61,820 nucleotides of DNA from Rikenellaceae bacterium (GTDB lineage Bacteria > Bacteroidota > Bacteroidia > Bacteroidales > Rikenellaceae), in assembly GCA_045632975.1 (NCBI GenBank), contig JAZQXR010000024.1, forward strand, positions 1 to 61,820, written 5' to 3'. Made by a program: the position numbers and the translations under genes. The notes below the pieces were generated by a model. That model ran no database searches, was not told the DNA's origin, and saw nothing but the letters and a program-made list of their open reading frames with translations. The stretch's first letter is position 1, and each line of letters starts with the position of its first letter. This document shows positions 2,150 through 29,186 of this stretch, piece after piece.

Positions 2150-2173
2150 TACAAATATCCATATATCATTGTG

Positions 2174-2658: not shown

Positions 2659-2660
2659 AC

Positions 2661-2981: not shown

Positions 2982-3141
2982 CGATGCTTGCGAGCTCGCA
3001 CTATAGAAGCTGCGAGGGGCTGCAACAAAATCCTAATCGCACACAAGCGTAACAGCAAGGCGAAGGTAATGGGAAATGTCCGGCAAGCCAGAGAGGGGGT
3101 TGCAGGCGGGGCTACCTCTCTGTGATTTTGTCAATTCAAAA
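2982..3141 (+). pseudogene. Degenerate, frame-disrupted copy of the 3' end and terminator of the HTH gene at 2305-2658
   Basis: Nucleotide similarity to 2553-2718 was read by eye. One frame gives ILIAHKRNSKAKV against NLIAHKRNSKAKA, there is a stop and frameshift upstream, and the same ...gattttgtcaatt(t/c)aaaa tail is present. Confidence 0.6.
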
Positions 3142-3479
3142 ATTATTCGTAATTTTGCTGTAAGGAATTGTAGTTCTGACGTTTGTACGGCAAATGTCGG
3201 GTTCGAGAACAACACTTCCCCAAAACCCAAGCGGCCATCAATTTGGGCGCATGGCACAAGGCAAAGGTAATTGCTTGATATACATAACAAAGAGAACATA
3301 GACAGCCTTTCGCGTCCCGCCATTGGGACAAAAGATTGAGCGGTCTGGTTTTCTGATTTTCGGACAGTAGGGTTAGAAGGCACGACCCCACTCGTCCGAT
3401 TGTGGATTAGCGAGTGTAGAAACCGTTTTCGTCCCACAAACCCCGGGGAGAAGAGAGAGATTGAATTAACTTTAAGATT

Positions 3480-4622: not shown

Positions 4623-4690
4623 GGGCAGGCGCGCTGCATTTGAGAGCAAATTTAATGGCGTAAGATAGCTACTAACAACAAATTGAGGGT

Positions 4691-5455
4691 ATGGAGTTCA
4701 AACAGAGTGTCAAGGAAGCTTTAGCTTATTATGTATATGCCTTGGTAGACCCAAGGGATAACAAAATTTTCTACATTGGGAAAGGTAAAGGGGATAGGGT
4801 TTTCCAGCATGCAGCGGCAGCCATTGCGGATAATAATACCCACAATTTGAAACTTGACACCATTCGAAGTATCAAATCAGAAGGCAAAGAGGTTGTTCAC
4901 TACATTATACGCCACAATCTTGAAGAACAAGAGGCGTTCCTTGTAGAGTCAACCCTGATAGATATGCTGACCTATTCGAAATTCAATCATAACAACCAGC
5001 TAACAAATCTCATTGCAGGCCACCATCAATGGGACGAAGGCATAAAGAGCATTGAAGAAATCAACGCTATATACGACTGCTCAAGGATTGAGCTAAAGGA
5101 TAGGGATAATATACTTTTGGTAAATCTCAATCGCAGTTACAACCAAGCCAAAGCCCAAGGGGTTTATAAGAGATATGACATTTATGAGTCGACACGGAAA
5201 TACTGGCTTATCAGCAGAGATAAGTCAGCATACATCAATTATGTGCTCGGCGTATATAAGGGCGTTGTAAGATGTGTCATCAGGGTAAAATCGCATGAAT
5301 TTGTACGCCAAGCAGAGGATGGCACTATCTTTTCAAAACCTCGTTGTTGCTTCGAAGGAGAGGTCTGCCCAGACTCACCTTACATGAATTCCGATGTTCG
5401 CGACTACCCATTCGGCAGTGGTGGAGCCATTAGGTATATAAGGGCATCGTTATAA
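4691..5455 (+). CDS. GIY-YIG nuclease family protein (COG3680-like, with an uncharacterised C-terminal domain)
   Basis: N-terminal YYVYALVDPRDNKIFYIGKGKGDRVFQH gives the GIY and YIG elements plus a conserved Arg. A downstream Glu is in EAFLVESTLID. The gene is AT-rich relative to its flanks. Confidence 0.75.
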   Translation: MEFKQSVKEALAYYVYALVDPRDNKIFYIGKGKGDRVFQHAAAAIADNNTHNLKLDTIRSIKSEGKEVVHYIIRHNLEEQEAFLVESTLIDMLTYSKFNHNNQLTNLIAGHHQWDEGIKSIEEINAIYDCSRIELKDRDNILLVNLNRSYNQAKAQGVYKRYDIYESTRKYWLISRDKSAYINYVLGVYKGVVRCVIRVKSHEFVRQAEDGTIFSKPRCCFEGEVCPDSPYMNSDVRDYPFGSGGAIRYIRASL

Positions 5456-5535
5456 ATACCGAGTAGGCACACCACTTGTTCGAGAATAAATCTGACGGTG
5501 CGATTACGATTATTGCAAGGGGTGTTGGGGGCTGA

Positions 5536-5823
5536 TTATTTGTTGTGACCCGGGCCTTCGGGGAACCAGCCCTTATCCACGCGTCGCTTTTGGTGGATAA
5601 CCTCCAAGATACTCCAAAACGACGAAAAAGCCATTACGCCCAGGATTGTGGATGCGATAAAATTCTCAACCGCAATCGACAACGCACAAAACACAAGACC
5701 CGCAACAAGGAACATCCACCAACACTTTATGCCGAGATAGAACTCGGCTTTGATAACCAAGGGGTGAAAAGCTCCGATCACCAGAAAGGTCGCAAGGCCT
5801 ACTATAATTCCTATAAAGTTCAT
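5536..5823 (-). CDS. DUF4491 family small membrane protein
   Basis: 95 aa with three hydrophobic helices. The sequence MNFIGIIVGLATFLVIGAFHPLVIKAEF... is typical of Bacteroidales DUF4491. Confidence 0.7.
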   Translation of the reverse strand: MNFIGIIVGLATFLVIGAFHPLVIKAEFYLGIKCWWMFLVAGLVFCALSIAVENFIASTILGVMAFSSFWSILEVIHQKRRVDKGWFPEGPGHNK

Positions 5824-5843
5824 AAATTCACAACTATTTTTTG

Positions 5844-5851
5844 CAAAGATA
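5844..5851 (-). promoter_or_regulatory. Bacteroidetes -7 promoter box TAtcTTTG for the DUF4491 gene
   Basis: The reverse complement of caaagata is TATCTTTG. It lies ~21 nt upstream of the ATG. Confidence 0.5.
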
Positions 5852-5956
5852 GTGAAAGGCGAGTGAAGAAAAGCAAGTTTACTTGGACTTTTCTTCCGAG
5901 CCGCATCTTATCTTATGTAAAGATAGTGAAAGGCGAGTGAAGAAAAGCAAGTTTAC
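5845..5956. repeat. Perfect 38-bp direct repeat (5845-5882 and 5919-5956)
   Basis: aaagatagtgaaaggcgagtgaagaaaagcaagtttac occurs twice with a 74-bp period. I checked it base by base. Confidence 0.9.
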
Positions 5957-6009
5957 GCGGAATCACGGAAAGATTTTGCTTTGCAGGGTGGGGTTTCGAA
6001 AAAAAAGGC

Positions 6010-12498: not shown

Positions 12499-12521
12499 CT
12501 TCAATACCGCCTATAAGGGCC

Positions 12522-12561
12522 AAAGAGAGCGTGCCCAAAATTCATTGGGCACGCTCTCTTT
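12522..12561. terminator. Bidirectional intrinsic terminator, member of the AGAGCGTGYCC hairpin family
   Basis: aaagagagcgtgccca-aaattcat-tgggcacgctctcttt lies between the convergent glp operon and the CHAT operon. Confidence 0.8.
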
Positions 12562-12704
12562 GGTACAAAGTCGCAAATAATAGTTATTTGAAGCCTCTCG
12601 CAAGCCAGAATATAATAACAGTTTACAGGCCGGACGGGCAAAACGGCATTATCAGGATACCATCCTACATCATCCACCTCAACACTACGTGCCGCCACCA
12701 ACGA

Positions 12705-14930
12705 CTATTCGACACCGTCCAACAAAATAAAAGAGGCCCAATAGTACGGATTGTCCCATCCGTTTTCTTTGTATGAGCGCAATGTCTGTTTGGCACGCTC
12801 CAAGGCATCGTGCTTGGTCATGCCCTCCACAATCCAATTTCTGTAAAAATCTATCATCAGCCTACATGTTGCATTGTCATCAACCTTCCACAGTGACATG
12901 AGAATACTATTGGCGCTGGCCATTTTAAAGCCTCTTTGCAGGCCAAAGACTCCGTCACCTTCCACATCTCCACGACCTGTTTCACACGCGCTCAACACTA
13001 TCAAATCCATACCTCGAAAATCCAAAGCAGATATCTCCAATGCGGTCAAGAAACCATCATCAACACCCCGCGGCAGCTCGTCACCAAACCACTTATTATC
13101 GGCTCCTGACAATAATAAACCACATCTATTCAAAGGGTGGTCACTAAAGCGTAATCTACCGAAGGTAGCATCATCATTACCCCAGAAATAGCCATGGGTT
13201 GCAATATGCGCAAGTCGAACACCTCTGCCACTCAACGCCTTGAATGAGGCTTCAGTTCCTCTTACGCCAATATACGCCGTAGTATGGAGCTTTGTTGAGT
13301 CTATTTGTCTCAATGTCATTACGATGCTATCTGCTTCAACTCGAGTACCCTCAAGATAGTCAAAACCCGCATCTGCAGCACGAACCAGATGTAATAAAGA
13401 TTTAGACGGAGAAGGTATTGATCGTTTTCGTTGGTTCCGTTTGCTATGTGCATCTGCAACCACATCATGATAATGCATATCATAACGTAGTCCGCCATAT
13501 ATGGCCGCCTGATTGCCACTGTTAGCCTTCCGTTCAACGGCCAACTCCCGAGTGGAGGAGAGCCGATATATAGGGAATATATCCGAGATAGCGTAGTACG
13601 AGCCATCATCGTTAGGGGGAAGATACGGGAAGTGCTCTATCGCGGAAATCAGAAGTTCGCCGTCAGCCGCAAAATAGACTCGCCCCTCTTTGGTTCTGGG
13701 CATGTTATCTACAATATCATCAACCCAAATAGCTTTACTTAAATTCCACAAATCTCGAGCCCTACTCTCATCGTACGACTCCAATGATACATTTTTGAGC
13801 GCATCCTCAAGCAAGAGCCTTTTGCGACCAACCTCCACCACATTACTCAGCCTTACTAATCGTGGTGAACGCCATCCTTTTTTGAGCAATATCGCGCCGT
13901 ATTCTCCATCGTGATTTCTATAAAACTCTATTGCCAGGTCATCCGCGCTCAACTTGGACGCAACATCTTGCCACTCGATATAGAGCTGTGGCAGCTGGAA
14001 CTCCTGCCCGGACTCTTTAAGTACTCGCAAAATCTCATAATCCAGAGAGTCAATAACCGATTGGGACGCTTGCATTTCAACACCTAATTGCCGTGTCCTC
14101 ATAACATCAATAGCACGTTGATTGCCACTCATATTGACATGTTCCTCAAAACTGCGAGTCGTATTGAGCAACAGACCTTTAGACAACAGCACCGCATTGT
14201 ATGCTGCCGAAGCGATCGGGCCTTTGGAGGCACGTTCGCTTGACTTATACGCTACGCTCAATGTCCTATGAATATACTGCGCCGCCGTCGACCAATATAC
14301 GGTTCGTTTTGATTCACAGGTCGAGCAGAACTCTGTTTTTATACGATTCACATATGCGTCATACCCCAAATTGTGATAATAGTTGGATTTGCCTTGAGAT
14401 AGTCGTCCTGCATAAATTCGAGATAGATCCAGCAGTGATATCAGGCATATTTCGCTACCGTCCCCAAAATACTGCTGTTTGAGCCGCAATGAGTTACGAG
14501 CATATCTTGTAGCCCCAAATGTACGTTCTGAAATATCTTCCAGTCGGGACATCAGGTCAAGATAGAATATTTGGGATAGTGTATCTCTACCGTCAAAGCC
14601 ACCCTGTCCATGACACTCAAACAGAGAGTTACTTTTATGAATTAGATTTAACCCCTGCTCGTTGTCGCCTTTCTCAACACATATATTCGCACACCACAAA
14701 AGGCACTCTGCATATTGCGCACTATTGGCAGTGTATTGAGCCTCATACGCCTCCAGCAACTTATTAAGAAGCGAATCCGCCCTGTTACTCTTGTCTGATT
14801 TAATCTCCGCCACCAACAGCTCTATCTTGTTCAAGCCCAAGCTGTCGCTGTCATGCACCACATTTGCAGCACAAGTCAAAGGCCAAGTAAACAGTAGCAC
14901 TAATGTGATAAGTATCGTTTTTGTTGACAT
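12705..14930 (-). CDS. Exported TPR-repeat / CHAT-domain (caspase-like) protease
   Basis: Signal peptide MSTKTILITLVLLFTWPLTCAAN. The CHAT catalytic dyad context is RLAHIATHGYF (His) and LIVLSACETGRG (Cys), with the CHAT tail SLWKVDD...YYWASFILLDG. Confidence 0.9.
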   Translation of the reverse strand: MSTKTILITLVLLFTWPLTCAANVVHDSDSLGLNKIELLVAEIKSDKSNRADSLLNKLLEAYEAQYTANSAQYAECLLWCANICVEKGDNEQGLNLIHKSNSLFECHGQGGFDGRDTLSQIFYLDLMSRLEDISERTFGATRYARNSLRLKQQYFGDGSEICLISLLDLSRIYAGRLSQGKSNYYHNLGYDAYVNRIKTEFCSTCESKRTVYWSTAAQYIHRTLSVAYKSSERASKGPIASAAYNAVLLSKGLLLNTTRSFEEHVNMSGNQRAIDVMRTRQLGVEMQASQSVIDSLDYEILRVLKESGQEFQLPQLYIEWQDVASKLSADDLAIEFYRNHDGEYGAILLKKGWRSPRLVRLSNVVEVGRKRLLLEDALKNVSLESYDESRARDLWNLSKAIWVDDIVDNMPRTKEGRVYFAADGELLISAIEHFPYLPPNDDGSYYAISDIFPIYRLSSTRELAVERKANSGNQAAIYGGLRYDMHYHDVVADAHSKRNQRKRSIPSPSKSLLHLVRAADAGFDYLEGTRVEADSIVMTLRQIDSTKLHTTAYIGVRGTEASFKALSGRGVRLAHIATHGYFWGNDDATFGRLRFSDHPLNRCGLLLSGADNKWFGDELPRGVDDGFLTALEISALDFRGMDLIVLSACETGRGDVEGDGVFGLQRGFKMASANSILMSLWKVDDNATCRLMIDFYRNWIVEGMTKHDALERAKQTLRSYKENGWDNPYYWASFILLDGVE

Positions 14931-14934
14931 GTTA

Positions 14935-15468
14935 TCAGAATTTAAATCTCAATGCGACGCCCATCGCATCGTATGGATTATCATTAGGATATGTGTATCG
15001 AGCCACTCCAACATCAATTTTATCACTTATCGGAGCGATGTATGCCACCTGCGCTTCCAACGCATGCGCTTTATTGTACAATTTACCAGCCCATATACCA
15101 AATGGGATTGCAATACCAGCGGCCACAACACTCACACATGGGATATATGCCCATAATGACCAGTCATTATTTACCGCCAAACAACTTCCGACAGCGACCA
15201 CGCCTAATGTTGCAACACTACCCGCAATTAATACATTCCGCCTCTGCATCCGCAAATGCTTAATTTTGTTTTTTATATCATAATTGTAAGCGTGAGCTAA
15301 AAAAGAGGCCTCTTTGTAGTAGTCCGTCATCAAATCAAATGGTTCTACACGAACCGAAGTGACGGTATCCACGACGCTCTCGTGGTCACCTAATAGACAG
15401 GTGCCATCTTGAGCTTTTATGGTACATGATATTAAAAATAATATTATTGTCATTAATCCTTTTTTCAT
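14935..15468 (-). CDS. Exported hypothetical protein with a central hydrophobic hairpin
   Basis: N-terminal signal MKKGLMTIILFLISCTIKAQ. There are two hydrophobic segments, and the C-terminus ...VALRFKF ends in Phe as OMP beta-signals do. It lies 4 nt from the next gene. Confidence 0.65.
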   Translation of the reverse strand: MKKGLMTIILFLISCTIKAQDGTCLLGDHESVVDTVTSVRVEPFDLMTDYYKEASFLAHAYNYDIKNKIKHLRMQRRNVLIAGSVATLGVVAVGSCLAVNNDWSLWAYIPCVSVVAAGIAIPFGIWAGKLYNKAHALEAQVAYIAPISDKIDVGVARYTYPNDNPYDAMGVALRFKF

Positions 15469-15480
15469 GAGATCCGGGAG

Positions 15481-16182
15481 TTAGTCATTGAACATAGATG
15501 GCGCATGGAGAGGCTCTCCCGAGGTGAAAATACGACAGCTTAATCTCATCTCAAAATACAGAGCCTCTATATGTGTTTTTGTAATATTATAGTACGAAAT
15601 CTTTTGAGGACTTAAAGGCGGTACTATATATGATCCTAACCGAGCCTCAAACTTCAGCCTTGTAAAACGAAAGTGAAGAGCGGCATACCAACATAAGCTC
15701 ATAGGATTAAAACTGTCGGGATATATTCCATTGAAGGAGAAGTTATCCCTGTTTTTAATTTTACTGCCAAGGTAAACGTCCGACTTAATACCCGCTCCGA
15801 AATACATAGACTCAACCTTGACATCTGCCGACAGCCAATGGCTATCCACTCCAGCCGCTCCAAATAGACCTTTGTTATAGTCATAAAATTGGTATTTATA
15901 ACCTAAACTTCCATTGTATTGAAGGAAACCACCCGCTCTGTACAATTCAACACCTGCACCCAGGTCCATGTATTTACCATATAAATATTTTTTATCGAAC
16001 ACAGTATTGTTGGCAGTCCACATATTGCCATGCTCCACCCTGCTCCCTGCGGCGTATACAAATACATTGGTCAATATTGGCTTTATCTGCGTTTCCGTCA
16101 TAGGCCTAACAACCTCTTGCGCATGCAGTCTACCCACAAGCGACAACAGGAAACACAGCAGCAGTAGAGCTCTGCCTTTCAT
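15481..16182 (-). CDS. Exported hypothetical protein, beta-barrel-like
   Basis: The probable start is MKGRALLLLCFLLSLVGRLHAQ; the ORF track's longer start is at 16224. The sequence has alternating aromatic and Gly-rich beta-strand character. Confidence 0.6.
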   Translation of the reverse strand: MKGRALLLLCFLLSLVGRLHAQEVVRPMTETQIKPILTNVFVYAAGSRVEHGNMWTANNTVFDKKYLYGKYMDLGAGVELYRAGGFLQYNGSLGYKYQFYDYNKGLFGAAGVDSHWLSADVKVESMYFGAGIKSDVYLGSKIKNRDNFSFNGIYPDSFNPMSLCWYAALHFRFTRLKFEARLGSYIVPPLSPQKISYYNITKTHIEALYFEMRLSCRIFTSGEPLHAPSMFND

Positions 16183-16186
16183 GTGT

Positions 16187-16888
16187 TTATTCCTTGTAAT
16201 AAACGTATTTGATAGCTCGCACATAATACTTGTTTTTCTTAATCCATCTGTCTTTGGGGCCGTATTTCTCGTTTTGTGTTGTGGTCACAACCGCTCTATT
16301 TTCCGGATCGTAATCACTCTCCACTCCGTTGATATTGGCATAACCCTCTATATCCTCTACGCAAGTCCAATATAGTTGTTCTTTGCTTAATGGAGTACCT
16401 CCCACCCCACGCAGAGCGGCATTTAGCGCATCAACACACCCCCCTCTTATGCCAAATATCAAATCCAGCTCGTTTTTAGTAGGGAGTCTCCAACTGCCTG
16501 CCCGAGGAAACTCTTCTGCTCCATTCTTCTTGTTGCACCAATTCTGTGCAGGGTATCGCTCAATACCTAACGACATCATTGCCTGATGCATCGCCACCCC
16601 GAATTCGGGTCGACGAACTTGTGTATTGTTTAACTTATTCTTATAAACTCGTTCTCCTATCAGCCCCCAGGACTGAAGTGATTCGTCAATCGAAACGGCT
16701 ATAATATATTCAGAGGCGTTAGAACTCTTCATCACATATGCAATAATGCCCTCGTTGCCGTACTCGTCAATATAGTAATCATACAGATTGTACTCTTCCG
16801 TCGAGTCATCTGTGTACACCCCTTCGGATTCAAATGAGCAGGACACAAGCCCGACTAAAGTTACTATGTATAGTAAAAATCTTTTCAT
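16187..16888 (-). CDS. DUF1566 (Lcl C-terminal-like) domain lipoprotein
   Basis: The probable start is MKRFLLYIVTLVGLVSCSFE (lipobox Cys). The hallmark AGSWRLPTKNELDLIF is the DUF1566 W-x-LP-x-x-x-EL motif. Confidence 0.7.
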   Translation of the reverse strand: MKRFLLYIVTLVGLVSCSFESEGVYTDDSTEEYNLYDYYIDEYGNEGIIAYVMKSSNASEYIIAVSIDESLQSWGLIGERVYKNKLNNTQVRRPEFGVAMHQAMMSLGIERYPAQNWCNKKNGAEEFPRAGSWRLPTKNELDLIFGIRGGCVDALNAALRGVGGTPLSKEQLYWTCVEDIEGYANINGVESDYDPENRAVVTTTQNEKYGPKDRWIKKNKYYVRAIKYVYYKE

Positions 16889-16895
16889 AGGTCGT

Positions 16896-17759
16896 CTAAT
16901 AAAATTTAGATTCGGTCTGCTGTAACGTAGAGCAATCAAACGTCATTACAAACGGGCGATGATTGTGATTCTCTATATTGATTTTGTTTTCTTGCTCTAT
17001 ATCGAGCATTTTCGTCTTGAAATACACATCGAACGCGTCATCGGCGACACAGAATGTAATTGGCATAACTATCGTCTGTTCAGTAGGATTCAGGTACGAG
17101 AATTCATATCCCACAGAGCCATAGTATAGTCGTTCTAATGTGGTCGAGACAAACGACACCGAATAAGAGACATGCCCACTGAATAGAGTTGCCGTGTTGG
17201 CATTCCTGAACACACAATAACCATTGTATGTGAGAGGCGTAAACTCTATCATGTGAGTCTGATTCGCTGGTGTTAATTGCGCAATGGCCTGTCCCAATAT
17301 ATTGTGTACATAGTTATCACTACGTTGGTCGGAGTAGAAGTAGGCCTCATTCAGCGATCTTACTTTCATCTGGAACCATGTCTCGTAATAATCAACATCC
17401 GAATTGTACCTTACGACGTCTGCTACAAATAGAAATTTATAGCCAAGATTTTTGTCCAAATGCTTAAATCTAATCCTTTTATAATCACGAAATGGAGCGA
17501 ACAAGGACTCTTTACTCAATAGGCTGTCTTGCTGATTATAACAGTATGCCGTTATACGTACGCGACAATCAACGGGGAGTTTGTCGACACGCATCATCTC
17601 AAACGAATTTCCATCGTACTGCAAGATACTCGAAAAGAGTTCGTCTGTATTAAACTCAAAGTCGATATGACGCAGATTAGTGTCGTTCAACTCATCAAAG
17701 TCCCTTTCACAAGCGACAAGCGCACATAGGCATATAGATATGAATATTAGTCTTTTCAT
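16896..17759 (-). CDS. Hypothetical lipoprotein
   Basis: Lipoprotein signal MKRLIFISICLCALVACERD. I recognise no domain. Confidence 0.65.
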   Translation of the reverse strand: MKRLIFISICLCALVACERDFDELNDTNLRHIDFEFNTDELFSSILQYDGNSFEMMRVDKLPVDCRVRITAYCYNQQDSLLSKESLFAPFRDYKRIRFKHLDKNLGYKFLFVADVVRYNSDVDYYETWFQMKVRSLNEAYFYSDQRSDNYVHNILGQAIAQLTPANQTHMIEFTPLTYNGYCVFRNANTATLFSGHVSYSVSFVSTTLERLYYGSVGYEFSYLNPTEQTIVMPITFCVADDAFDVYFKTKMLDIEQENKINIENHNHRPFVMTFDCSTLQQTESKFY

Positions 17760-17773
17760 TTCGGCAGGCTCTT

Positions 17774-18421
17774 TTAATATGATATAAGATACGATAGCGA
17801 TATGCCGACACTATATCTCTCGTGGGTTTGGGCATACACCTGATCATAATCGAATTTTGGCGATTCGAATACATATTTTTGATTTACCATTGGCGCCATA
17901 TTGTAATTCAAATAGAGCCCCACATCCCATCTATTTAATCTTACGCCAGCAACTCCCGAGGCGGTTGCATGACTTTTACCGATATTGTTATCTGCAAGCA
18001 CTTGACCGGGAGCCTCCTTATACGAAGCTCTTACGTCAAAATGGTAGGCCATTTCTGCGCCCAAATAGACGCAGCCCGTTCGCCAACGTACGACGTTAAT
18101 ATGCCCCGACACAAATGTACCGACATATTGACCTGCCACGACCGCATTTCTATGCATGCTGATTGGATTGGTAAAGGTATATTTACACCCCACATCTACA
18201 TTAAACAGATTCCTATGTGAACCTATCCCGTAAAACAACTTTGGCCCTATATGCAAATTGTTATACGCTCTACCATCAAGGCCTACTCCCACATGTTGCA
18301 TATACACCCTACTCAAGCGCTGCCTTCGGAGCCTCACAATCTCTTTGGGTGTTTGTGCAAATATGGGTTGTGCCAATAGCACGACAAAGACAAATACAAT
18401 ATATCTGACAATTCGGTTCAT
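17774..18421 (-). CDS. Exported hypothetical protein, small outer-membrane beta-barrel-like
   Basis: Signal peptide ...LLAQPIFAQ. It is Gly/aromatic-rich and the C-terminal strand ...SLSYLISY ends in an aromatic residue. Confidence 0.6.
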   Translation of the reverse strand: MNRIVRYIVFVFVVLLAQPIFAQTPKEIVRLRRQRLSRVYMQHVGVGLDGRAYNNLHIGPKLFYGIGSHRNLFNVDVGCKYTFTNPISMHRNAVVAGQYVGTFVSGHINVVRWRTGCVYLGAEMAYHFDVRASYKEAPGQVLADNNIGKSHATASGVAGVRLNRWDVGLYLNYNMAPMVNQKYVFESPKFDYDQVYAQTHERYSVGISLSYLISY

Positions 18422-18426
18422 TATCT

Positions 18427-19716
18427 CTACAATTCAATCTTTTCCATTGTAAATGGGAATGTCATTGTTGCATACCAAGCATTCCTTTCTTGTCCATCAA
18501 TATACAAGGAGATTGCGGTTTTATAGGGCTGGCCGGTATCCTGATTAGTTTTGACAAAGCCCGGGAATTCATAATATCCGCCCGGCATTAAATTAGCTTC
18601 AGCCCTAACATTATTAACATTACGGCGAGATCCTTCCTCATCCACATATGTCCCCCTCAACGACAATATTCCCTCTAGGGTCACGCCATCCGAAAACGTC
18701 TTCTTATAATTGTCGAAAATAAGCTGTTCAGAGATTGAGATGCTACCATCTTTTCGATCAAATGACACCAATATCGGGACAACCGGCTGTGTAAGATTAC
18801 CCCATCCAACCATAATCAAAGAGTGATTACGGACATCCTCCTTGAAAGACACAAGATACGTTTTATAAGAGGCATCGGTCAGAAGCCATAAGTCCAACAA
18901 GTTCGCATAAGCCTCATCCAAAGGATACTCATCAACATGAAACACCTCGCTCATAGCATAATGTCCTGTCGGCTTGCCGAACTCATCCAAACCGATAGCA
19001 CACGACATATAATCGCCAGGAGTTAAGACGCGATAAAAATTAGTGCTTCCAGTTCGAATCTCATTATCTTCAAACCAAGGTTCCGCACTATTCTGGTTTT
19101 GCAGTTTGTTAAGAGTGGCCATTGCCGCAGAATCAATAAATGGCTCTATTCGCTCATATCTTCGAATTACATCCACAGGGGTGGTCGCCAAAACATAGCG
19201 CTCTTTGACTTGCCCTGCTACATACACCGTAACCAATGAGCGGTCGTTGTAGTTATGTTCAACATACCCTTTGTACACAACGGACCAGTTTGGGTTAATG
19301 CTCGCCACCATGTCGCTATCGAGAGTCGTAAACTCCGTGATGGCAGGTCTACCATAACGCTCTCCTATACCATTCATACCGAAAGCGATATAGGTATATG
19401 TTGTATTCGGCACCAAACCACTCACCCGGATAAGTTGCTTCCGCTGATAATGCACCTTTTGTTGCAAAGATGTTTTGTCTATATGCGACAGAAACTTTTT
19501 TATCTCATAGTTGATGTCACTCACTTCTCCCTTAACCACAAATCCATAGTAGGCATCATCATTTGTGGCATTGTGAGTGACTATCATAGTTGCATTGTAA
19601 GAGTTCACCTCGGAGACGGCAACATTAAAGACAATGTTTTCAACACACTCCTCTTTTGAGCAACCCACAACAAGAGTTGCCAGCATGAGAAATAATGCAA
19701 CAATATTCGTTCTCAT
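18427..19716 (-). CDS. Hypothetical lipoprotein with an FN3-like N-terminal module
   Basis: Lipobox ...LATLVVGCSKE. The segment VSGLVPNTTYTYIAFGMNGIGERYG...EFTT looks like an FN3 C-terminal strand pattern. Confidence 0.65.
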   Translation of the reverse strand: MRTNIVALFLMLATLVVGCSKEECVENIVFNVAVSEVNSYNATMIVTHNATNDDAYYGFVVKGEVSDINYEIKKFLSHIDKTSLQQKVHYQRKQLIRVSGLVPNTTYTYIAFGMNGIGERYGRPAITEFTTLDSDMVASINPNWSVVYKGYVEHNYNDRSLVTVYVAGQVKERYVLATTPVDVIRRYERIEPFIDSAAMATLNKLQNQNSAEPWFEDNEIRTGSTNFYRVLTPGDYMSCAIGLDEFGKPTGHYAMSEVFHVDEYPLDEAYANLLDLWLLTDASYKTYLVSFKEDVRNHSLIMVGWGNLTQPVVPILVSFDRKDGSISISEQLIFDNYKKTFSDGVTLEGILSLRGTYVDEEGSRRNVNNVRAEANLMPGGYYEFPGFVKTNQDTGQPYKTAISLYIDGQERNAWYATMTFPFTMEKIEL

Positions 19717-19727
19717 ATTGAACCCTG

Positions 19728-20393
19728 TTAGTTACTAATTATAACAAAACTGCAATCCTTGGGGGCACAATTAATGACCTCCAGCTCGACTATATTACGT
19801 CTATTCTCCGGCACATCGAACGAGATTTGTCGATGTGGCAATCCCGTCTTAACACTCTTGGTATCATCGTATCTCACATCCAAACCATCTCGGTTGGTTA
19901 CACGTATTTTCATCGTAACCAATCCACCCGCCTCCGCAACAACAGCCAGCTCTTGATGACCTTTTGATGAGAAGGTGTATTTAGTACTCATGCCCGCTTT
20001 CACAAAACATGTTTTAGTCAGAATTGAACCATCAGCTGTTTGCCCTCGTTTTGCATCGCGTCTCTTGAGCTCTATCTCATCCGCACAATCATAGGCATCA
20101 TTCCCATCCTTCAACAACTCATCAATAAAATCCGAAGAGAAAACCAAGTGTCCATTAAGTGAGCCTTGAATACTGTCCATGCAGTTTATGCCGGGGAAAT
20201 AAGCTATTTTAGACTCCCGTAGTTGTGCTGCCAGCCGTTCAATCTCATCTCGATTATTGTTGGAGGCAGCATCTCTCAAAGATATGCAAACATCAACGAC
20301 AGATTGAATACTGGCGTTTTTTACAATACTATTCTGCGCATAACTCAAAAGAGTCAGAATCACAAATATGGCAGCAAGGAGAATCCTTTTCAT
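19728..20393 (-). CDS. Secreted hypothetical protein
   Basis: Signal peptide MKRILLAAIFVILTLLSYAQ. The C-terminal half is beta-sandwich-like. I recognise no family. Confidence 0.6.
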   Translation of the reverse strand: MKRILLAAIFVILTLLSYAQNSIVKNASIQSVVDVCISLRDAASNNNRDEIERLAAQLRESKIAYFPGINCMDSIQGSLNGHLVFSSDFIDELLKDGNDAYDCADEIELKRRDAKRGQTADGSILTKTCFVKAGMSTKYTFSSKGHQELAVVAEAGGLVTMKIRVTNRDGLDVRYDDTKSVKTGLPHRQISFDVPENRRNIVELEVINCAPKDCSFVIISN

Positions 20394-20404
20394 AGCAAGA
20401 TAGA

Positions 20405-21739
20405 TTAGTTCAGGTGTCCAACTCGTATAATAACCCTAAAGCCCACGGTGCTATCTTTATCATTAACACCGAAGGGGGCTTGGGAGTTGGCTGTTATTTC
20501 GGTTATTGGCGAATTGAAATTTCCACCACATATAATGTATTGAGTGTGGTCCTCCCCGTATGTCGAATTGCAAAGCTCACTAACATTGCCGCTCATGTCG
20601 TACAAATCGAGCATATTGGAACTCTTCCCTTGGCGGCCATCACTCGGATGCACGACTCCACCCGAATTCGCACCATACCAGGCAACTTCATTGGCATCAT
20701 CATCGCCCACATATAGCGTTGTTTCGTTATATTCTCCACCTCTTGCTGCATACATCCACTCCTCGACCGATGGCAGTGCTATATCCAAGTTTGTCATGTC
20801 GTTCAACTTGCCAAGGAACAAATAGATCTCGCCATACGACAATCCGGTCATTGGCAGATTGCCATCCTCGGCCTTGTACGGGATATTTTGTAATCCATAC
20901 CACAACTCCTTTGAGAATTCAAACTGGCTCATCCATAGTTCGCCTTTTCGCACCTCGCTCATATTATGGAGTAATTTATCCAAAGAGTTGAGTTGCAACT
21001 CGGTAACTTCGGGATCAAGATACAGAAGCAACGAGCTATATTTATTGTGCATGTCAGCTCTCATTGCTGCTACATCTGTCAACCCACGCTGGCGCTCTGC
21101 ATCATTACTTGCGAAACGAGGCCAAAACAACGCCACCCCAAGCAGAGTCAGAACCAATACTGCAACTAATATGACGTTAGTACGTTTTGTGACAACTTTA
21201 TTGTTATGCGTCACCCGTAATTCCGCATCTTCTGTTTGGTCAATATGTGATGTCTGGGTCGCCTCCCCCAACATCGGGACTATCCTATTTTTGACCATTA
21301 AATCTATGTCAACTCCCAATGTTTGTCCAAATCGGATCTCCGAATGTTGATACTCCCTAACAACACGTTGAATCTCTTCGGGGATGTTGGGTTTTCCCGG
21401 CTCACTCGACAGCCCTTCAAACATGCCATCCGGATTGACGGGGATGATTTTTTTGCCATATTGCACCGCGAGCATTATCTCTTGGCGCATCCAATCACCT
21501 TCATTAACACAACGAAGCAAGGCACCCTTGGATAGTATCAGCATAAATACCGAAATCTCCTCAATAGCCCGCTTAATATTTTCCCCAAAAACGCCGTCTG
21601 TCAATTCGTCATAATCAAGGAACACCTTATACCCCCTCTGCTGCAACATCAGTTGCAGAATTCTTGCGTATTGAGCGCCTCCGTCACGCCTATAACTTAT
21701 AAATACATCGTACTTCATAGTTGGGGAATTGGAATCCAT
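20405..21739 (-). CDS. TIR domain - single transmembrane helix - FGE-sulfatase (SUMF1/GldJ-like) domain protein
   Basis: The TIR region is YDVFISYRRDGG...FLDYDEL...GDWMRQEIMLAV (conserved Glu at residue 87). The TM helix is NVILVAVLVLTLLGVALFW. The FGE-sulfatase region is LPSVEEWMYAARGG...LYDMSGNVSELC...GGNF...VGFRV. Confidence 0.9.
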   Translation of the reverse strand: MDSNSPTMKYDVFISYRRDGGAQYARILQLMLQQRGYKVFLDYDELTDGVFGENIKRAIEEISVFMLILSKGALLRCVNEGDWMRQEIMLAVQYGKKIIPVNPDGMFEGLSSEPGKPNIPEEIQRVVREYQHSEIRFGQTLGVDIDLMVKNRIVPMLGEATQTSHIDQTEDAELRVTHNNKVVTKRTNVILVAVLVLTLLGVALFWPRFASNDAERQRGLTDVAAMRADMHNKYSSLLLYLDPEVTELQLNSLDKLLHNMSEVRKGELWMSQFEFSKELWYGLQNIPYKAEDGNLPMTGLSYGEIYLFLGKLNDMTNLDIALPSVEEWMYAARGGEYNETTLYVGDDDANEVAWYGANSGGVVHPSDGRQGKSSNMLDLYDMSGNVSELCNSTYGEDHTQYIICGGNFNSPITEITANSQAPFGVNDKDSTVGFRVIIRVGHLN

Positions 21740-21778
21740 ACAGAGCTTTGACTATCTGTAGATTGGTTGTTATATGTG

Positions 21779-21786
21779 CAAATATA
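21779..21786 (-). promoter_or_regulatory. -7 promoter box TAtaTTTG for the TIR...CHAT operon
   Basis: The reverse complement of caaatata is TATATTTG. It lies ~40 nt upstream of the TIR gene ATG. Confidence 0.45.
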
Positions 21787-21938
21787 TAAATTTTACAAGA
21801 GTATACAAAACTTTACTACCAACTTAATAAAGCACATGTTGAGCAATGTGAAGTGACCCCAAAAGTTTTTTGTCTAAACTCTTGGGGCCACTTCAACTTC
21901 GGGGCACTCCTTTAGTGTTTATGCCGCGTATTCTACTC

Positions 21939-24605
21939 CTAATTGAATACCATCTTCACCTTCATGCGGATAGTCAGGGGCAGGGGGCCGGTGTACTTCG
22001 AGTTGGAGGTCTGGAACTGAACGCCACGACCACCGCTGAACACCTCGGCCGAGTCGGTGCTCTCCATATAGTAGCTACCACCATAGAAGCCCACATTGGC
22101 CGGAACATCAACCTCCTCGCCATTCGAGAGAGCCTTGACATCCTCAACCGTGATACTCACGCTGGTCACACCCGTAACATAGGTGTCATTGACAACATAG
22201 AAGCCTTGTCCCTTCTTGGTAAAGGTTACATCCACATATCCAGGCATACCCTCGGTATCAGCCACCGTTGCGCCTGCCACCTTCTCGGTGTTGTAGGTGA
22301 AGTTATCGGCAGTAATATAGGCGACTGTTGTTGCGGGAGGTGTAACATCTCCACTATCGCCACTATCGCCACTACCGCCATCATCCTTTGCCTCCACCTC
22401 GCGGATAGCGGTGTCGAGGCGATATGTTGCGATGGGCAGATATTTGCCGCTTCTGAAATCCACGCCAATCAGGTCTACATGGTCCTTGTAAACTTGCAGA
22501 ATTGCGCCCTCCGAGCCCGAGGCATTATCACTGCGCGAGGTTCCGTTGGAGGTGATGGGTATACCACACGAGGGAACGTGCACACACCATCCCGATTGGG
22601 GTTCTCCGCCAGAAAGTTTGCGGTAGAGGTTTGCTCGGTCTTGGTACTTTTGGAGTTGCCACTCCCAGTGCGAGTGACCACTGAACCACATCGAGTTGAT
22701 GTAGCGGTCACACATATTGCGCAGACGTGCAAGTTGCAATCCCGACAGCCAGTTGCCCGAGGGGTAGATATTGTTCAGGTTGCCGGCGCGGTCGGGGAAG
22801 AACAGGTGGGTAAAGACAAAGCAGCGCTCATTGCGATACTCCTCGAGTTTGCTCTCAAGCCATGCGATATTTTCGGCGGTGTAGGCGTTACTGAAGTTCC
22901 AAATCGACATACCGAAGAAGAGGAAGTGATCGACCTTGCCATCCTCGCGCTCCACGCTCTGCTCGAACACGAGCGGTTGGTCGGTATATTTGGTCCAACG
23001 CGAGATATCGATGCCGCTGTAGGTACAGTCGTGGTTACCTGTGGTTGTGTATACGGGAATCTCCGAGAGCGATGCAATCTCCTGATAGCGTTTCAGCTGT
23101 GCATCGGTACCATCTTGCGTAATATCGCCGCAAATGCAGGTCATAGTTGCACCCGCCTCGCCAAAGAAGTTCAGCGCACGCTCGAAATCCTCCTCGGCAT
23201 TCACACCCGAGCGACCGATATGCACGTCGGACAGCACACCGAAGCTATACATCGGGGTCTCGGTGTAGTCGGGTTTGAACTCCGCCAACTGAATGGTACC
23301 CCAATGCTCGCCCACCGAGTTGTAGATACCGATGGTTTTGGCCTCGCGCGGAGCTACGTTCACCATGATAAACTCCTCGTAGCTGGCAATATCCTTGATA
23401 TTCATCTTGCAGATGGGGGCGTAATCCTCCAGAGGTTGACCGTCCGCGCCCTCGTACATGAGGGTATAGACACCTCTCGTGTTAGTGCTGATAGAGATGT
23501 TGTTATCGGCCAGAATTTCGCCACTCGCCTTGCCGTCCTCGCGAATAATGATATTTACGGTGTACGATTTGCCACTAACCCAGTTGCACACCTCCGAGCC
23601 GTTAATCTTGGCCAGCTCTTCGCCATTGAGTTGGAGCGCCAAAGCCTCCTCGCCATCTCTTTTGACATTTACTTTCAGCGTCTTGTCTGCGAGAGCATCG
23701 TCATCAGCCAGAGGCAGCGCCATTGCGTATGCGGTGTACGATGCGCCAGCTTCGAGCGTTGTGCCGTCGCCTGCAAGTGTCAGAATCTTGCTATAACTCT
23801 CTTCGCCAAACGAAACCTCGGCCGAGCCATCTGCCCACGAGAATGCGACCTCGGCAGTAGTTGCAGCAATGGGCTCGCCATCGGCACTAATCGAAATCTC
23901 TTGCAGCGACGAAGCCTCGTCCTTGGCGTTGGTCACCACAAAGCGGAATGTAGCCGGAATATGATTGAAATCCAGTGTAGTACGACCCTCTTTGTAGGTG
24001 GTCGATGCGTACATATACATGTAGTCGCCGAGCACACTCGGGTCTTGCGATACGGTCTGAACAAATGTCGACGGCATCTCCACTGTGCAGAGGTGTTGTG
24101 CTTCGGCCTCATCCTCAACAATCATTGCATCTCCCGCAACGGCATAGCAGTAGGCGGCACTCTTAAGCGCCTCGGTCGAGTAGTAGTTTACGGTTTGGAA
24201 ATCGGCGTGATGGGCGTCACCCTCGTGCGGCATCACCGCAAGGCCGCTATATGTAGCCTCCTCGACAAACTCATCCTCCTCGGGGGTGGTGAGACCCACA
24301 ATCGGCTGTGTGCCATCCGTAACGACAAACGACAACGCGCTTGTATTGTACGAATCCATCTCGACGTCATCCCACACAAGTGTCATGTCGCCGCTACCCG
24401 CGGTATCGTCCCACGCAGCGCGCGTAAGCTCCACATCACTGCTTGCGGCATTGTAGCCACAACCGCTGAAAAGATTAAGACGCACGTACTGCTCCACGGG
24501 CGGTGTATCGCCGCTCTCTTTATCGGAACTCGGTTCGCCTTTGGTGCACGCGGTTGCCATCATCGCCAGCCCCAGCACCCAAAATATACTCTTTCTAATG
24601 TTCAT
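21939..24605 (-). CDS. Surface lipoprotein with a calcineurin-like metallophosphoesterase domain
   Basis: Lipobox ...LAMMATACTKGE. Metallophosphatase motifs are GVLSDVHIG, CGDITQDG, TGNHD and SGHSHWEW. The opposite-strand 913-aa ORF has none. Confidence 0.85.
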   Translation of the reverse strand: MNIRKSIFWVLGLAMMATACTKGEPSSDKESGDTPPVEQYVRLNLFSGCGYNAASSDVELTRAAWDDTAGSGDMTLVWDDVEMDSYNTSALSFVVTDGTQPIVGLTTPEEDEFVEEATYSGLAVMPHEGDAHHADFQTVNYYSTEALKSAAYCYAVAGDAMIVEDEAEAQHLCTVEMPSTFVQTVSQDPSVLGDYMYMYASTTYKEGRTTLDFNHIPATFRFVVTNAKDEASSLQEISISADGEPIAATTAEVAFSWADGSAEVSFGEESYSKILTLAGDGTTLEAGASYTAYAMALPLADDDALADKTLKVNVKRDGEEALALQLNGEELAKINGSEVCNWVSGKSYTVNIIIREDGKASGEILADNNISISTNTRGVYTLMYEGADGQPLEDYAPICKMNIKDIASYEEFIMVNVAPREAKTIGIYNSVGEHWGTIQLAEFKPDYTETPMYSFGVLSDVHIGRSGVNAEEDFERALNFFGEAGATMTCICGDITQDGTDAQLKRYQEIASLSEIPVYTTTGNHDCTYSGIDISRWTKYTDQPLVFEQSVEREDGKVDHFLFFGMSIWNFSNAYTAENIAWLESKLEEYRNERCFVFTHLFFPDRAGNLNNIYPSGNWLSGLQLARLRNMCDRYINSMWFSGHSHWEWQLQKYQDRANLYRKLSGGEPQSGWCVHVPSCGIPITSNGTSRSDNASGSEGAILQVYKDHVDLIGVDFRSGKYLPIATYRLDTAIREVEAKDDGGSGDSGDSGDVTPPATTVAYITADNFTYNTEKVAGATVADTEGMPGYVDVTFTKKGQGFYVVNDTYVTGVTSVSITVEDVKALSNGEEVDVPANVGFYGGSYYMESTDSAEVFSGGRGVQFQTSNSKYTGPLPLTIRMKVKMVFN

Positions 24606-27161: not shown

Positions 27162-29186
27162 ATGAAAAAGCTACTTTTTTGTCTGCTGACATTAGGTATG
27201 ATTATCTCTTTTGGCGGCTGCGAGGGTCTTGAGGGGCTCGAAGGCCTCATCCCGCCCGGAACCGAACTACCGGGCGACGACACGGACGATGAGGGCGACA
27301 AAGGTGACGAGGGCGACATTGTGGAGGATGACAACAACAAGATATTCTACACCACCGCCGACAGCAAAACCCTATCCGCCATCAACACTGACCCATCGGT
27401 CTTTGGCGCGTCCATTATTTCGAACACCTACAACTACAATGACGGACAGGGCGTTCTGACCTTCGACAAGAGCGTCACCTCCATTGGCGAGCGCGCTTTC
27501 AACGAATGTACCGAGCTGACAAGCATCACTCTGCCCGAGAGTATTACGGAGATTGGCAGCAATGCATTCAAAGCGTGCACCGCACTGACAAGCATCACTC
27601 TACCCGAGAGCGTCACCGCTATTGGAGAATATGCATTCAATGGTTGCACCTCGCTGACGGACATCACCCTACCCGAGAGCGTTACGACAATGGGAACGCA
27701 CATTTTCTATGGTTGCACAGCGCTTACAAGCGTCACCCTGCCCAGCAACATTAAGAGCATTGGGGATAGCTTCTTCTATGGCTGCGCGGCGCTGACAAGC
27801 ATCACCCTGCCTGAAGGCGTTACGGAGATCTGCAAGTTTGCATTCCGATATTGCGCCGCGCTGAAGAGCATCACAATTCCCGAGAGTATCACGACTATTG
27901 GCATTCGCGCATTCTCCCGTTGCACTTCGTTGGAGAGCATCACCATACCCGAAGGCGTTACGGAATTTGGCACATACGTATTCGAAGAGTGCACCTCGCT
28001 GAAAAGCGTCTCTTTGCCCCAAAACTTCACAACTATTCCATCCGGCTTACTATCCCGTTGCAGCTCACTAACAAGCATTACCATACCCGAGAGTGTCACT
28101 ATGATTGATGATGTTGCATTTGAAAGTTGCACCTCGCTGACTGACATCAAAATTCCCGAGAGTGTCACAACATGCGGGCCGTACATATTCCGTAATTGCA
28201 CCTCGCTTCCCGTCATCGACAACATCCGATATGCCGATACATACTTGGTTGGTGTAACCGACAACACCCTGTCCACTTACACCATCAAGGAGGGGACCCG
28301 TTTTATTGGCGAAGAGGCCTTCGCAGATTGCTCCGCGCTGACAGACATCTCCATCCCCGAGAGCGTAATTTCGATTGGAAATCATGCGTTCGACGGTTGC
28401 AGCTCACTTCCTATCTTTGATAATATCATGTACGCAGGCACCAATCTGATAAAGGTGATAGATAAAACACAAACCTCATACACCATCAAAGAGGGAACAC
28501 AGTTTATTGCAGAGAACGCATTCAGCAATTGCAAATATATGACAAGCATCACACTGCCTGATGGTATCACCGCTATTAGGGAAAGTACCTTTTTGAGTTG
28601 TGACGCTCTGGCAAGTATCACCCTGCCCGAGAGCGTTACAACGATTGAAAAATTTGCATTCTCCAATTGCCCATCACTGACAACCATCACCCTGCCCGAG
28701 AGCGTTACAACAATGGAAGAATCCGCATTCAAAGCTTGCACCTCGTTGGAGAGCATCATCCTACCCCCCAATATAACTACACTCGAGAGGAGTACATTCT
28801 ATTCGTGTACTTCGCTAACAAGCGTCACCATTCCCGAGGGCGTTACGACAATTGGGTCATCCGCATTCTGGGGCTGCAGCTCGCTGGCAAGCATCACCCT
28901 ACCCGAAAGCGTTACAACTATTGAGGGTGGCGCATTCTATGACTGCAGCTCACTGAAAACCATCACCTTTCCCGCGAATGTTACGAATATTGACAATTGC
29001 ATCCGCCGTTGCACTTCGCTTGAGGGCATCTACGTCAAGGCGACCACTCCGCCATATACGATCAGCATCTTCCAAAATGATGACTCGATTGTAAATATTT
29101 ACGTACCCGCCGAATCGTTAGAGGCTTACAAAACAGCCAAGGGCTGGTATCATTATGCAGATGTGATTTTCGGCTACGACTTCTAA
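27162..29186 (+). CDS. BspA-like leucine-rich-repeat (LRR_5) surface lipoprotein
   Basis: Lipobox ...ISFGGCEG. There are more than 20 repeats of the type LTSITLPESVT-IG--AF--C-. The start is taken at the internal ATG 27162. Confidence 0.85.
   Translation: MKKLLFCLLTLGMIISFGGCEGLEGLEGLIPPGTELPGDDTDDEGDKGDEGDIVEDDNNKIFYTTADSKTLSAINTDPSVFGASIISNTYNYNDGQGVLTFDKSVTSIGERAFNECTELTSITLPESITEIGSNAFKACTALTSITLPESVTAIGEYAFNGCTSLTDITLPESVTTMGTHIFYGCTALTSVTLPSNIKSIGDSFFYGCAALTSITLPEGVTEICKFAFRYCAALKSITIPESITTIGIRAFSRCTSLESITIPEGVTEFGTYVFEECTSLKSVSLPQNFTTIPSGLLSRCSSLTSITIPESVTMIDDVAFESCTSLTDIKIPESVTTCGPYIFRNCTSLPVIDNIRYADTYLVGVTDNTLSTYTIKEGTRFIGEEAFADCSALTDISIPESVISIGNHAFDGCSSLPIFDNIMYAGTNLIKVIDKTQTSYTIKEGTQFIAENAFSNCKYMTSITLPDGITAIRESTFLSCDALASITLPESVTTIEKFAFSNCPSLTTITLPESVTTMEESAFKACTSLESIILPPNITTLERSTFYSCTSLTSVTIPEGVTTIGSSAFWGCSSLASITLPESVTTIEGGAFYDCSSLKTITFPANVTNIDNCIRRCTSLEGIYVKATTPPYTISIFQNDDSIVNIYVPAESLEAYKTAKGWYHYADVIFGYDF

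Follow-up and report, generated by a model that had tools for sequence, protein, structure and literature searches.

A TIR receptor-type protein, a small exported partner and a CHAT protease form a conserved operon core in Bacteroidales and a candidate envelope-sensing conflict system

A 61,820-nucleotide stretch of DNA from a Rikenellaceae bacterium (contig JAZQXR010000024.1, positions 1-61,820, assembly GCA_045632975.1; hereafter the window) carries on its minus strand, at positions 12705-21786, an AT-rich operon of nine genes that we number P1 to P9 in the order of transcription. A preliminary description made from the sequence alone had proposed that this operon, whose first gene encodes a transmembrane TIR protein and whose last gene encodes an exported CHAT protease, is a conflict or signalling system of the cell envelope. 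We found that P1, P2 and the CHAT gene form a unit that recurs across Bacteroidales, and that the TIR domain of P1 closely resembles that of the NAD+ hydrolase SARM1. Our model starts from direct observations of domain identity, topology signals and catalytic residues and of the way in which genes are linked and domains fused. We judge the chances to be about even that the operon is an envelope-sensing conflict (immune-type) system with a TIR domain, a predicted NADase, as its output.

P1 (20405-21739, 444 aa) had been described as a cytoplasmic TIR domain followed by one transmembrane helix and an extracytoplasmic FGE-sulfatase domain, and Pfam, topology prediction and charge bias all agree with that arrangement. 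The Pfam matches are TIR_2 (1.8e-10) and FGE-sulfatase (1e-12), the latter covering only positions 85-254 of the 255 in the profile. The TIR domain occupies residues ~9-125, and the transmembrane (TM) helix, at residues 189-207, is followed by a periplasmic helical linker and an FGE-sulfatase/C-type-lectin-like (FGS) domain at residues ~289-437. Topology prediction gave one TM helix and no lipobox. Over 29 homologues the net charge is +3.3 in the 15 residues before the helix and -0.7 after it, and because of this bias we place the TIR domain in the cytoplasm and the FGE-type domain outside. Relatives of the same architecture are numerous, none of them more than 59% identical.

The PDB sequences closest to the P1 TIR domain are the NAD+ hydrolases SARM1 and TIR-1 (E 1e-25 with a profile and 7e-18 with the single sequence), and 42 of 98 aligned residues (43%) are identical between P1 and the human SARM1 TIR domain. 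Residue E87 aligns with the catalytic glutamate of the SARM1 DWVHKE motif and is invariant in the 29 homologues. By its close sequence and its (D)W(V)xxE catalytic glutamate the P1 TIR domain is predicted to be of the SARM1 type, and NAD+ cleavage would be the chemistry expected of it.

The FGS domain resembles the non-enzymatic C-type-lectin-fold proteins TvpA (2y3c, E 2e-11), 5aoh and PorK, the likeness to PorK/GldK being distant. Three other identities were considered for P1 and rejected. A formylglycine-generating enzyme of the SUMF1/EgtB/PvdO kind is not supported by the partial Pfam coverage or by the NCBIfam PvdO score (12.8 bits against a cut-off of 500), and no FGE enzyme was among the PDB matches of P1 at E <= 0.001. 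The PorK/GldK ring lipoprotein of the type IX secretion system (T9SS) fails on score (TIGR03525, 33.8 bits against a cut-off of 350), on the missing lipobox and on the N-terminal TIR domain. Finally, an FGS variable protein diversified by a diversity-generating retroelement (DGR) would be expected to have a template repeat, but the last 496 nt of the gene have no second copy in the 61.8-kb window; a reverse transcriptase may lie elsewhere in the genome.

P2 (19728-20393, 221 aa) has a Sec-type signal peptide and belongs to a small unnamed family, with no match in Pfam, NCBIfam, PADLOC or PHROGs. Its structural model (mean predicted local distance difference test score, pLDDT, 83) consists of a helical N-terminal domain, an exposed, disordered linker of low confidence and a C-terminal beta-sandwich. 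The only low-confidence linker of the model contains R116-G117, a pair that is well kept among 42 homologues with identities down to 27% (R116 in 92%, G117 in 88%). A fold search with the beta-sandwich returned generic PPC-, CBM- and GOLD-type matches only (TM-score ~0.3), from which no function can be inferred. A P2 profile run against 1.84 billion representative sequences found 173 proteins. In two of them (P0424 and P0427) TIR_2, FGE-sulfatase and P2 domains stand within one chain, and in six others an nSTAND1 NTPase, a TM helix and a coiled coil precede a C-terminal P2 domain, which there occupies the position of the sensor in such proteins. From these fusions we conclude that P2 is a periplasmic domain that has repeatedly been wired to cytoplasmic conflict-system modules. 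By sequence, P2 appears both as the obligate neighbour of P1 and as a new periplasmic domain family that STAND NTPases use too. Exact-match look-ups gave a 99% match to P2 on an 845-bp contig and no record of the HAD protein beside the operon, and no strain comparison followed from them.

P9 (12705-14930, 741 aa) had been called a TPR-CHAT protease with a signal peptide and intact His and Cys contexts. The CHAT domain (residues ~330-741; Pfam 1.5e-43) and the dyad (H579/C649) were borne out, the residues H579, G580 and C649 being invariant in 32 sequences. The TPR region had no Pfam match and is seen through the alignment-based structural model (pLDDT 85), which has helical repeats at residues 50-306 and an alpha/beta CHAT domain. 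The signal peptide is of the Sec type, and no TM helix follows it. The closest structures to the model are Csx29 of craspase (7zoq_A, 1.4e-11; 8eex_B), then the periplasmic TPR-CHAT region of DdvA (8rot_A, 7e-10) and separase; 8tl0_C was also a fold match. We also observed within the CHAT domain a disordered, Lys/Arg-rich loop at residues 502-520 (window 13371-13427; pLDDT <50) in which R517 is near-invariant. By analogy with the inter-subunit linker of caspases, this loop could be an autoprocessing or regulatory site.

The preliminary description had named a lack of synteny between TIR-FGE and CHAT genes in other genomes as grounds for abandoning its proposal. A pattern scan of species-representative genomes for P1-type loci returned 52 loci (L numbers below), of which 51 carry Bacteroidales-type titles (Prevotellaceae, Bacteroidaceae, Muribaculaceae, Rikenellaceae and others) and one (L017) is labelled Christensenella. 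Linkage was counted for 39 full-length P1 homologues at 38 loci. In 37 of the 39 the gene immediately following is a P2 homologue; CHAT genes are found downstream and on the same strand for 31, or for 34 if either side within 10 kb is counted. The synteny therefore holds, and since P2 comes next in 37/39 and CHAT downstream in 31/39 we take P1, P2 and CHAT as the conserved unit. The window carries this unit, its P2 gene standing directly after the TIR-TM-FGS gene and its exported CHAT gene downstream on the same strand. At most loci the CHAT proteins are large (900-1500 aa), bearing signal peptides and long TPR regions, and two or three paralogues are often present. The system spans at least 38 species-level genomes and hundreds of protein clusters at 90% identity, its hosts belonging to gut and rumen Bacteroidales communities. 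A scan of viral contigs with the P1 alignment found no relatives; the system is thus not evidently phage-borne, a result that we regard as neutral for its function.

The idea that all nine genes are a conserved unit did not survive this comparison: P3-P8 are missing from most P1-P2-CHAT loci and form an accessory block of one sub-lineage, tied to a short CHAT subfamily (~740 aa) that includes P9. Within that sub-lineage the nine-gene order recurs (L004/L005, L042, L058, L065, L069 and L080; at least seven other contigs, 24-63% identity, differing flanks), and three loci have the same order minus P3 (L020, L022 and L059). Where the full order is kept, protein identities of 45-58% were seen in different genomic contexts. 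A metagenome scan seeded with P6 gave 21 loci, most of which hold the order (P3)-P4-P5-P6-P7-(P8)-P9. The modules are shuffled: at L058 the P9 homologue is 59% identical to the window protein and the P1 homologue only 24%. At L020 the P6-P7-P8-P9 module is repeated, its second copy being cut off by the locus end, and at L020:3084-7765 a 420-aa TIR-TM protein with a helical periplasmic domain in place of FGS is followed directly by P7-P8-P9 homologues. At L063:5410-7085 the place of P1-P2 is taken by an exported caspase of 306 aa, recognised by eye as Peptidase_C14-like from its HG and C motifs, and by a P2-like lipoprotein of 232 aa, with the P3-P7 and CHAT block behind them.

The seven genes between P1 and P9 had been said to carry Sec or lipoprotein signals throughout, and topology prediction agrees; eight of the nine products are extracytoplasmic, in keeping with the earlier view that most of the system lies outside the cytoplasm. 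Lipoboxes were found in P3 (18427-19716, 429 aa), P5 (16896-17759, 287 aa) and P6 (16187-16888, 233 aa counted from ATG), and Sec-type signal peptides in P4 (17774-18421, 215 aa) and P7 (15481 to 16182 or, with an alternative start, 16224; 233-247 aa). P3 and P5, whose families are unassigned, have the lipoboxes VVGC followed by SKEE and LVAC followed by ERDFDE, respectively. Acidic residues trail the lipoboxes of P3, P5 and P6; in view of the Bacteroidetes lipoprotein export signal, this would fit surface exposure. Profiles of P3, P4 and P5 had nothing among PDB sequences, or only non-significant FN3 matches, and the FN3-like assignment of P3 is unsupported (E 0.08). The DUF1566 assignment of P6 stands in part: the Lcl_C/DUF1566 match of P6 itself is below the gathering score, and seven of eight family members match Lcl_C/DUF1566. 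We regard P6 as a probable lipoprotein with a divergent Lcl_C/DUF1566-like domain; it also has a weak match to the FimD tip adhesin.

Two of the three small proteins earlier likened to beta-barrels keep that label as putative. P4 and P7 have no hydrophobic helices, and the C-terminal residue of P4 is aromatic, as in most P4 homologues; both proteins are putative small outer-membrane beta-barrels. The third, P8 (14935-15468, 177 aa), is instead a membrane hairpin protein with a signal peptide, a YNYE motif, two helices (79-97 and 109-127) and a C-terminal Phe. P7 travels with P8 and P9. At L059 a P8-like segment is fused to the N-terminus of CHAT (a weak match, E 0.006), and a separate P8 gene is absent.

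All nine minus-strand open reading frames of the preliminary description are present. Their spacing of 4-14 nt was reproduced when P6 and P7 were started at the ATGs that yield canonical signal peptides (16888 and 16182); the gaps from P1 to P9 are then 11, 11, 5, 14, 7, 4, 12 and 4 nt, and the alternative P7 start at 16224 would make it overlap P6. The AT-rich character was also confirmed, the operon having a GC fraction of 0.434 against 0.566 in its left and 0.53 in its right flank. The consensus of the Bacteroidetes -7 promoter box is TAnnTTTG. A box of this type, TATATTTG, lies on the minus strand at 21779-21786, ~40 nt 5′ of the P1 start codon, as had been noted; it is not unique, however, as three more matches to the consensus occur inside the operon on the minus strand (14516, 18112 and 20277). 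Upstream of the box, a minus-strand hairpin at 21849-21895 (20-nt arms, 90% complementary) terminates the metallophosphatase lipoprotein gene and marks the upstream boundary of the operon. At the other end, the bidirectional terminator that had been placed past the last gene corresponds to a 19-nt perfect inverted repeat with a 6-nt loop (12520-12563), a probable bidirectional terminator ~141 nt past the P9 stop codon and between the convergent P9 and HAD-hydrolase genes. Hairpins are confined to these two ends, and a single operon transcript is likely. A scan for sigma-70 promoters and terminators was uninformative for Bacteroidetes and missed the 19-nt hairpin. We rejected an invertible promoter, as, apart from weak pairs, the upstream terminator hairpin is the only inverted repeat near the promoter.

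The operon is an AT-rich insert amid housekeeping genes and has the character of an island. On one side are a glycerol-3-phosphate dehydrogenase set, an MFS transporter and the HAD hydrolase, and on the other is the metallophosphatase lipoprotein. The gene for the latter (21939-24605, 888 aa) joins a calcineurin-like metallophosphatase domain to a fimbrillin-like (Mfa_like_1) region, an unusual pairing.

Homologous loci elsewhere have neighbours of the kind seen in NAD-centred defence. An RyR-domain gene is found near 16 of the 39 P1 homologues, either directly upstream of the TIR-FGS gene, where it encodes ~214 aa and overlaps the P1 start (L011:9358-10005, L014:9342-9986 and similar), or just past the CHAT gene, where it encodes ~95-120 aa (L007:15042-15332, L083:7982-8344). 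RyR-domain proteins bind or cleave the 2'/3' cyclic ADP-ribose (cADPR) made by TIR enzymes (2026 preprint, PMC13232231), and these proteins may therefore buffer or read the TIR product. At L083 the gene order is P2 homologue, SIR2-TIR, nSTAND1-TM-P2, exported TPR-CHAT, RyR-domain protein and FGE-sulfatase protein. A ThsB-type TIR gene adjoins the L004 locus, and other relatives stand in bigger arrays with trypsin-like, PrsW, C39-RyR, truncated kinase and CHASE2 genes. The conflict-system character proposed at the outset is strengthened by the SARM1-like TIR domain, by the fusions of P2 to TIR-FGE and nSTAND1 and by the SIR2-TIR and RyR neighbours. As a separate observation, long same-strand arrays (L058:1-22190, L059:1-6400 and L011:1409-9326) contain a second recurring module, made up of a ~480-510 aa protein, a trypsin-like protein, a truncated kinase-like protein, a protein of ~210 aa, a CHAT protein of ~720-790 aa and a protein of ~425-466 aa; the same arrays also bring in PrsW-protease, C39-RyR and CHASE2 genes.

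All functional statements made here are predictions. We infer the following sequence, from the trigger and the protease substrate to the way in which the signal runs and its final effect. The TPR-CHAT protease would be kept inactive until a protein derived from an invader or from damage enters the envelope; in the nine-gene variant it would be aided by the putative barrels P4 and P7, the lipoproteins P3, P5 and P6 and the hairpin protein P8. The precedent of DdvA suggests, by analogy, that CHAT is the sensor or initiator rather than a second effector. Once activated, CHAT would cut a periplasmic substrate, the best candidates being two linkers, that of P2 with its conserved R116-G117 and the juxtamembrane one of P1. 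The changed ligand state of the FGS ectodomain would then lead the cytoplasmic TIR domains to associate, and the associated domains would hydrolyse or cyclise NAD+, resulting in a growth stop or an ADP-ribose (ADPR)-type signal. This particular order of protease, pro-ligand and receptor is doubtful in its details. In its most specific form, which is more speculative still, Bacteroidales would possess widespread Toll-like receptors whose caspase-like protease cleaves the pro-ligand P2 at Arg-Gly upon detecting phage or competitor proteins in the envelope, while the cytoplasm is still intact; in the nine-gene variant, lipoproteins and outer-membrane barrels would carry the sensor out to the surface.

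Several findings weigh against an envelope-sensing conflict system of this kind. Cleavage of P2 at Arg-Gly and an Arg specificity of CHAT are supposed by analogy with other clan CD peptidases. No RyR gene is present in the window, nor were known defence genes seen flanking the operon there. The profiles of P4 and P7 had no match in the PDB, so that their barrel nature is only putative, and profile-profile comparison of the two (hhalign, 24% probability) did not support a common origin. In addition, some loci have the accessory block and CHAT without a TIR gene within 7 kb; since such loci exist, L063 among them, the protease module can work without TIR output.

A machine of the same design might be directed against the periplasmic toxins of competitors (effectors of the type VI secretion system, T6SS, or bacteriocins) and not against phages, with the FGS domain as a trap that binds the effector. 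All of the system except the TIR domain is located where such effectors act, and the hosts live in dense gut and rumen Bacteroidales communities. Lopez and co-workers reportedly described, in 2021, FGE-like periplasmic proteins as a T6SS immunity family, a report known to us from its citation in the reference list of PMC9612521. Yet the surroundings of the operon in the window are free of T6SS and immunity-island genes, and RyR, SIR2-TIR and STAND neighbours have so far been known from anti-phage systems. We consider this target unlikely.

The direction of signalling could also be reversed. The cytoplasmic TIR domain would then sense infection, as ThsB does in Thoeris, and the signal would pass outward via the TM helix, the FGS domain and P2 to release periplasmic CHAT as a killer that digests the envelope. 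CHAT is indeed an effector in SAVED-CHAT and craspase systems, whose structures 8tl0_C and 7zoq_A match the P9 fold; proteolysis may be the output at L063, where the CHAT block stands without a TIR gene, and many loci have two or three CHAT paralogues. However, TIR domains of the SARM1 type are executing enzymes and not sensors, and the P2 domain holds the C-terminal sensor position of the STAND fusions. The variable parts of the loci are periplasmic (TPR lengths of 700-1500 aa, accessory lipoproteins) and variability is expected of sensors; the DdvA precedent likewise runs from outside to inside. We regard the inside-out route as quite unlikely.

An exported protease with P2 as its partner or inhibitor, surface lipoproteins and P1 as a regulatory receptor of envelope stress could have no immune function at all and serve protein processing, nutrient acquisition, surface remodelling or host interaction. 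The P2 beta-sandwich is like the pre-peptidase C-terminal, propeptide-associated and collagen-binding domains of secreted proteases, and at L063 the exported C14 caspase is followed by the P2-like lipoprotein. The FimD tip-adhesin and Lcl_C matches of P6, weak as they are, suggest adhesion, and the FGS domain has its distant PorK/GldK likeness. Such a role is distinctly unlikely, as it leaves unexplained a SARM1-like TIR domain with an invariant catalytic glutamate, the fusions of P2 to STAND NTPases, the SIR2-TIR and RyR neighbours and the patchy distribution, module shuffling and foreign base composition of the loci. That the nine genes are chance neighbours or several independent units is hardly credible: the three internal TAnnTTTG boxes on the coding strand and the loss of P3-P8 from most loci would allow it, but the short gaps, the hairpins solely at both ends, the recurrence of the order in at least seven other contigs with diverged sequences and differing flanks, and the fusions joining P1 to P2 and P8 to P9 all speak against it.

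To our knowledge, nearly all characterised bacterial immune systems sense infection in the cytoplasm, DdvA being the one partly studied envelope case. If the envelope-sensing conflict system proposed here is real, it would be a second and far more abundant and modular example of periplasmic or surface sensing, in dominant gut and rumen bacteria, and would couple a protease of the envelope directly to a SARM1-like NADase. Such a system would also have consequences for how the bacterial ancestry of SARM1-type TIR signalling is seen and for phage ecology or phage therapy in Bacteroidales. The residues that we offer for testing are E87 of P1, H579 and C649 of P9 and R116-G117 of P2.

Other features were observed elsewhere in the window. 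A second AT-rich stretch (1-6000, 35-47% GC), possibly another acquired island, codes, among others, for a 328-aa protein without a Pfam match (1163-2149), a protein with a GNAT domain (3480-4622) and one with a LEM-3-like GIY-YIG nuclease domain (4691-5455). Tandem repeats of 69 bp, in ~2-2.5 copies with 76-79% matches, occur in a lower-GC stretch at 27516-27686 and 28862-28993 and may encode a repeat protein. A thiamine pyrophosphate (TPP) riboswitch lies on the plus strand at 48493-48592 (Rfam RF00059, 66.5 bits, above the gathering score). Two adjacent arrays of 77-bp tandem repeats (61352-61751; 2.2 and 2.7 copies, 82-94% matches) carry in each repeat unit a TATGTTTG box on the minus strand.

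The gene set had been said to match no named defence system, and this was upheld. Scans of the nine proteins with PADLOC, NCBIfam and PHROGs gave generic TIR and FGE matches for P1 only (for PADLOC, the TIR domain alone) and nothing for P2-P9. Thoeris was rejected, as no ThsA-like protein is among P2-P9 and the PADLOC ThsB match to P1 is weak (E 7e-4); the NCBIfam ThcB4 model gives P1 34.5 bits against a cut-off of 220. CBASS with SAVED-CHAT was rejected as well, with no CD-NTase or SAVED match in the nine proteins and no PADLOC match for P9. Like SARM1, TIR-1 and the TIR proteins of Thoeris and CBASS, P1 keeps the catalytic glutamate, together with its 43% identity to SARM1. Whereas SARM1 is regulated by cytosolic ARM and SAM domains, the P1 TIR domain is tethered to the membrane beneath a periplasmic FGS domain, and whereas Thoeris requires ThsA, the operon has no ThsA, SLOG, SAVED or CD-NTase gene.

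Craspase (Cas7-11 with Csx29) provides the best structural match of P9 and likewise has a TPR-CHAT protein that is kept inactive until its partner signals. It is, however, cytoplasmic and RNA-guided and cuts Csx30, whereas P9 bears a signal peptide. A type III-E craspase was rejected, as P9 is exported, no cas gene lies in or beside the operon and the window has no CRISPR-like array.

P9 has the marks of a periplasmic TPR-CHAT protein of the DdvA type, namely the signal peptide, the modelled repeats with a CHAT domain and the match to 8rot_A. The periplasmic TPR-CHAT region of DdvA has been proposed to sense a phage-derived protein and to cut a juxtamembrane linker, thereby switching on a CBASS/CRISPR defence island (PMC11506125). 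The likeness lies in a periplasmic TPR-CHAT protease of the separase/craspase type with a His-Cys dyad, coupled across the inner membrane to a cytoplasmic phage-defence response, a coupling that for our operon is predicted. In DdvA the CHAT domain, the TM helix and a cytoplasmic zinc anti-sigma domain form one chain whose output is the release of an extracytoplasmic function (ECF) sigma factor; in the window CHAT is a separate exported protein, and the TM protein bears a lectin-like ectodomain and a TIR domain. An anti-sigma factor of the DdvA type was rejected, as the operon has no zinc anti-sigma domain or TM-CHAT chain and neither the operon nor its flanks have a sigma or anti-sigma match.

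FGS sensor domains fused to TIR, caspase, kinase and STAND modules have been described by Kaur, Burroughs, Iyer and Aravind (PMC7159879, PMC8195603), and P1 shares their 'syntax' of an N-terminal effector and a C-terminal FGS domain. The P1 FGS domain also matches the DGR variable protein TvpA, a likeness to the CLec targets of DGRs (PMC10907252). Those conflict systems are mainly cytoplasmic, dependent on MoxR-vWA or STAND proteins, often diversified by DGRs and found chiefly in cyanobacteria and other multicellular bacteria. Our operon, in contrast, has a TM helix and an obligate P2, encodes no NTPase, has no template repeat in the window and belongs to gut and rumen Bacteroidales. We found no description of a TIR-TM-FGE, P2 and exported CHAT system in the full-text literature, a search that left most subscription journals outside.

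A purely functional analogy is with insects. In the Toll/Spaetzle pathway of insects a protease and a secreted ligand act upon a single-pass receptor with a cytoplasmic TIR domain. Our operon, similarly, combines an extracellular protease, a small secreted protein with a candidate cleavage linker and a single-pass TIR receptor. There is no homology of ectodomain or ligand, the bacterial TIR domain is a predicted enzyme of the SARM1 type and not an adaptor scaffold, and the cleavage of P2 is only predicted. The P1-P2-CHAT unit is apparently an undescribed, conserved variant of the TIR/caspase conflict systems; it differs from them in being placed in the envelope, in the Toll-like topology of its receptor and in including the new P2 family.

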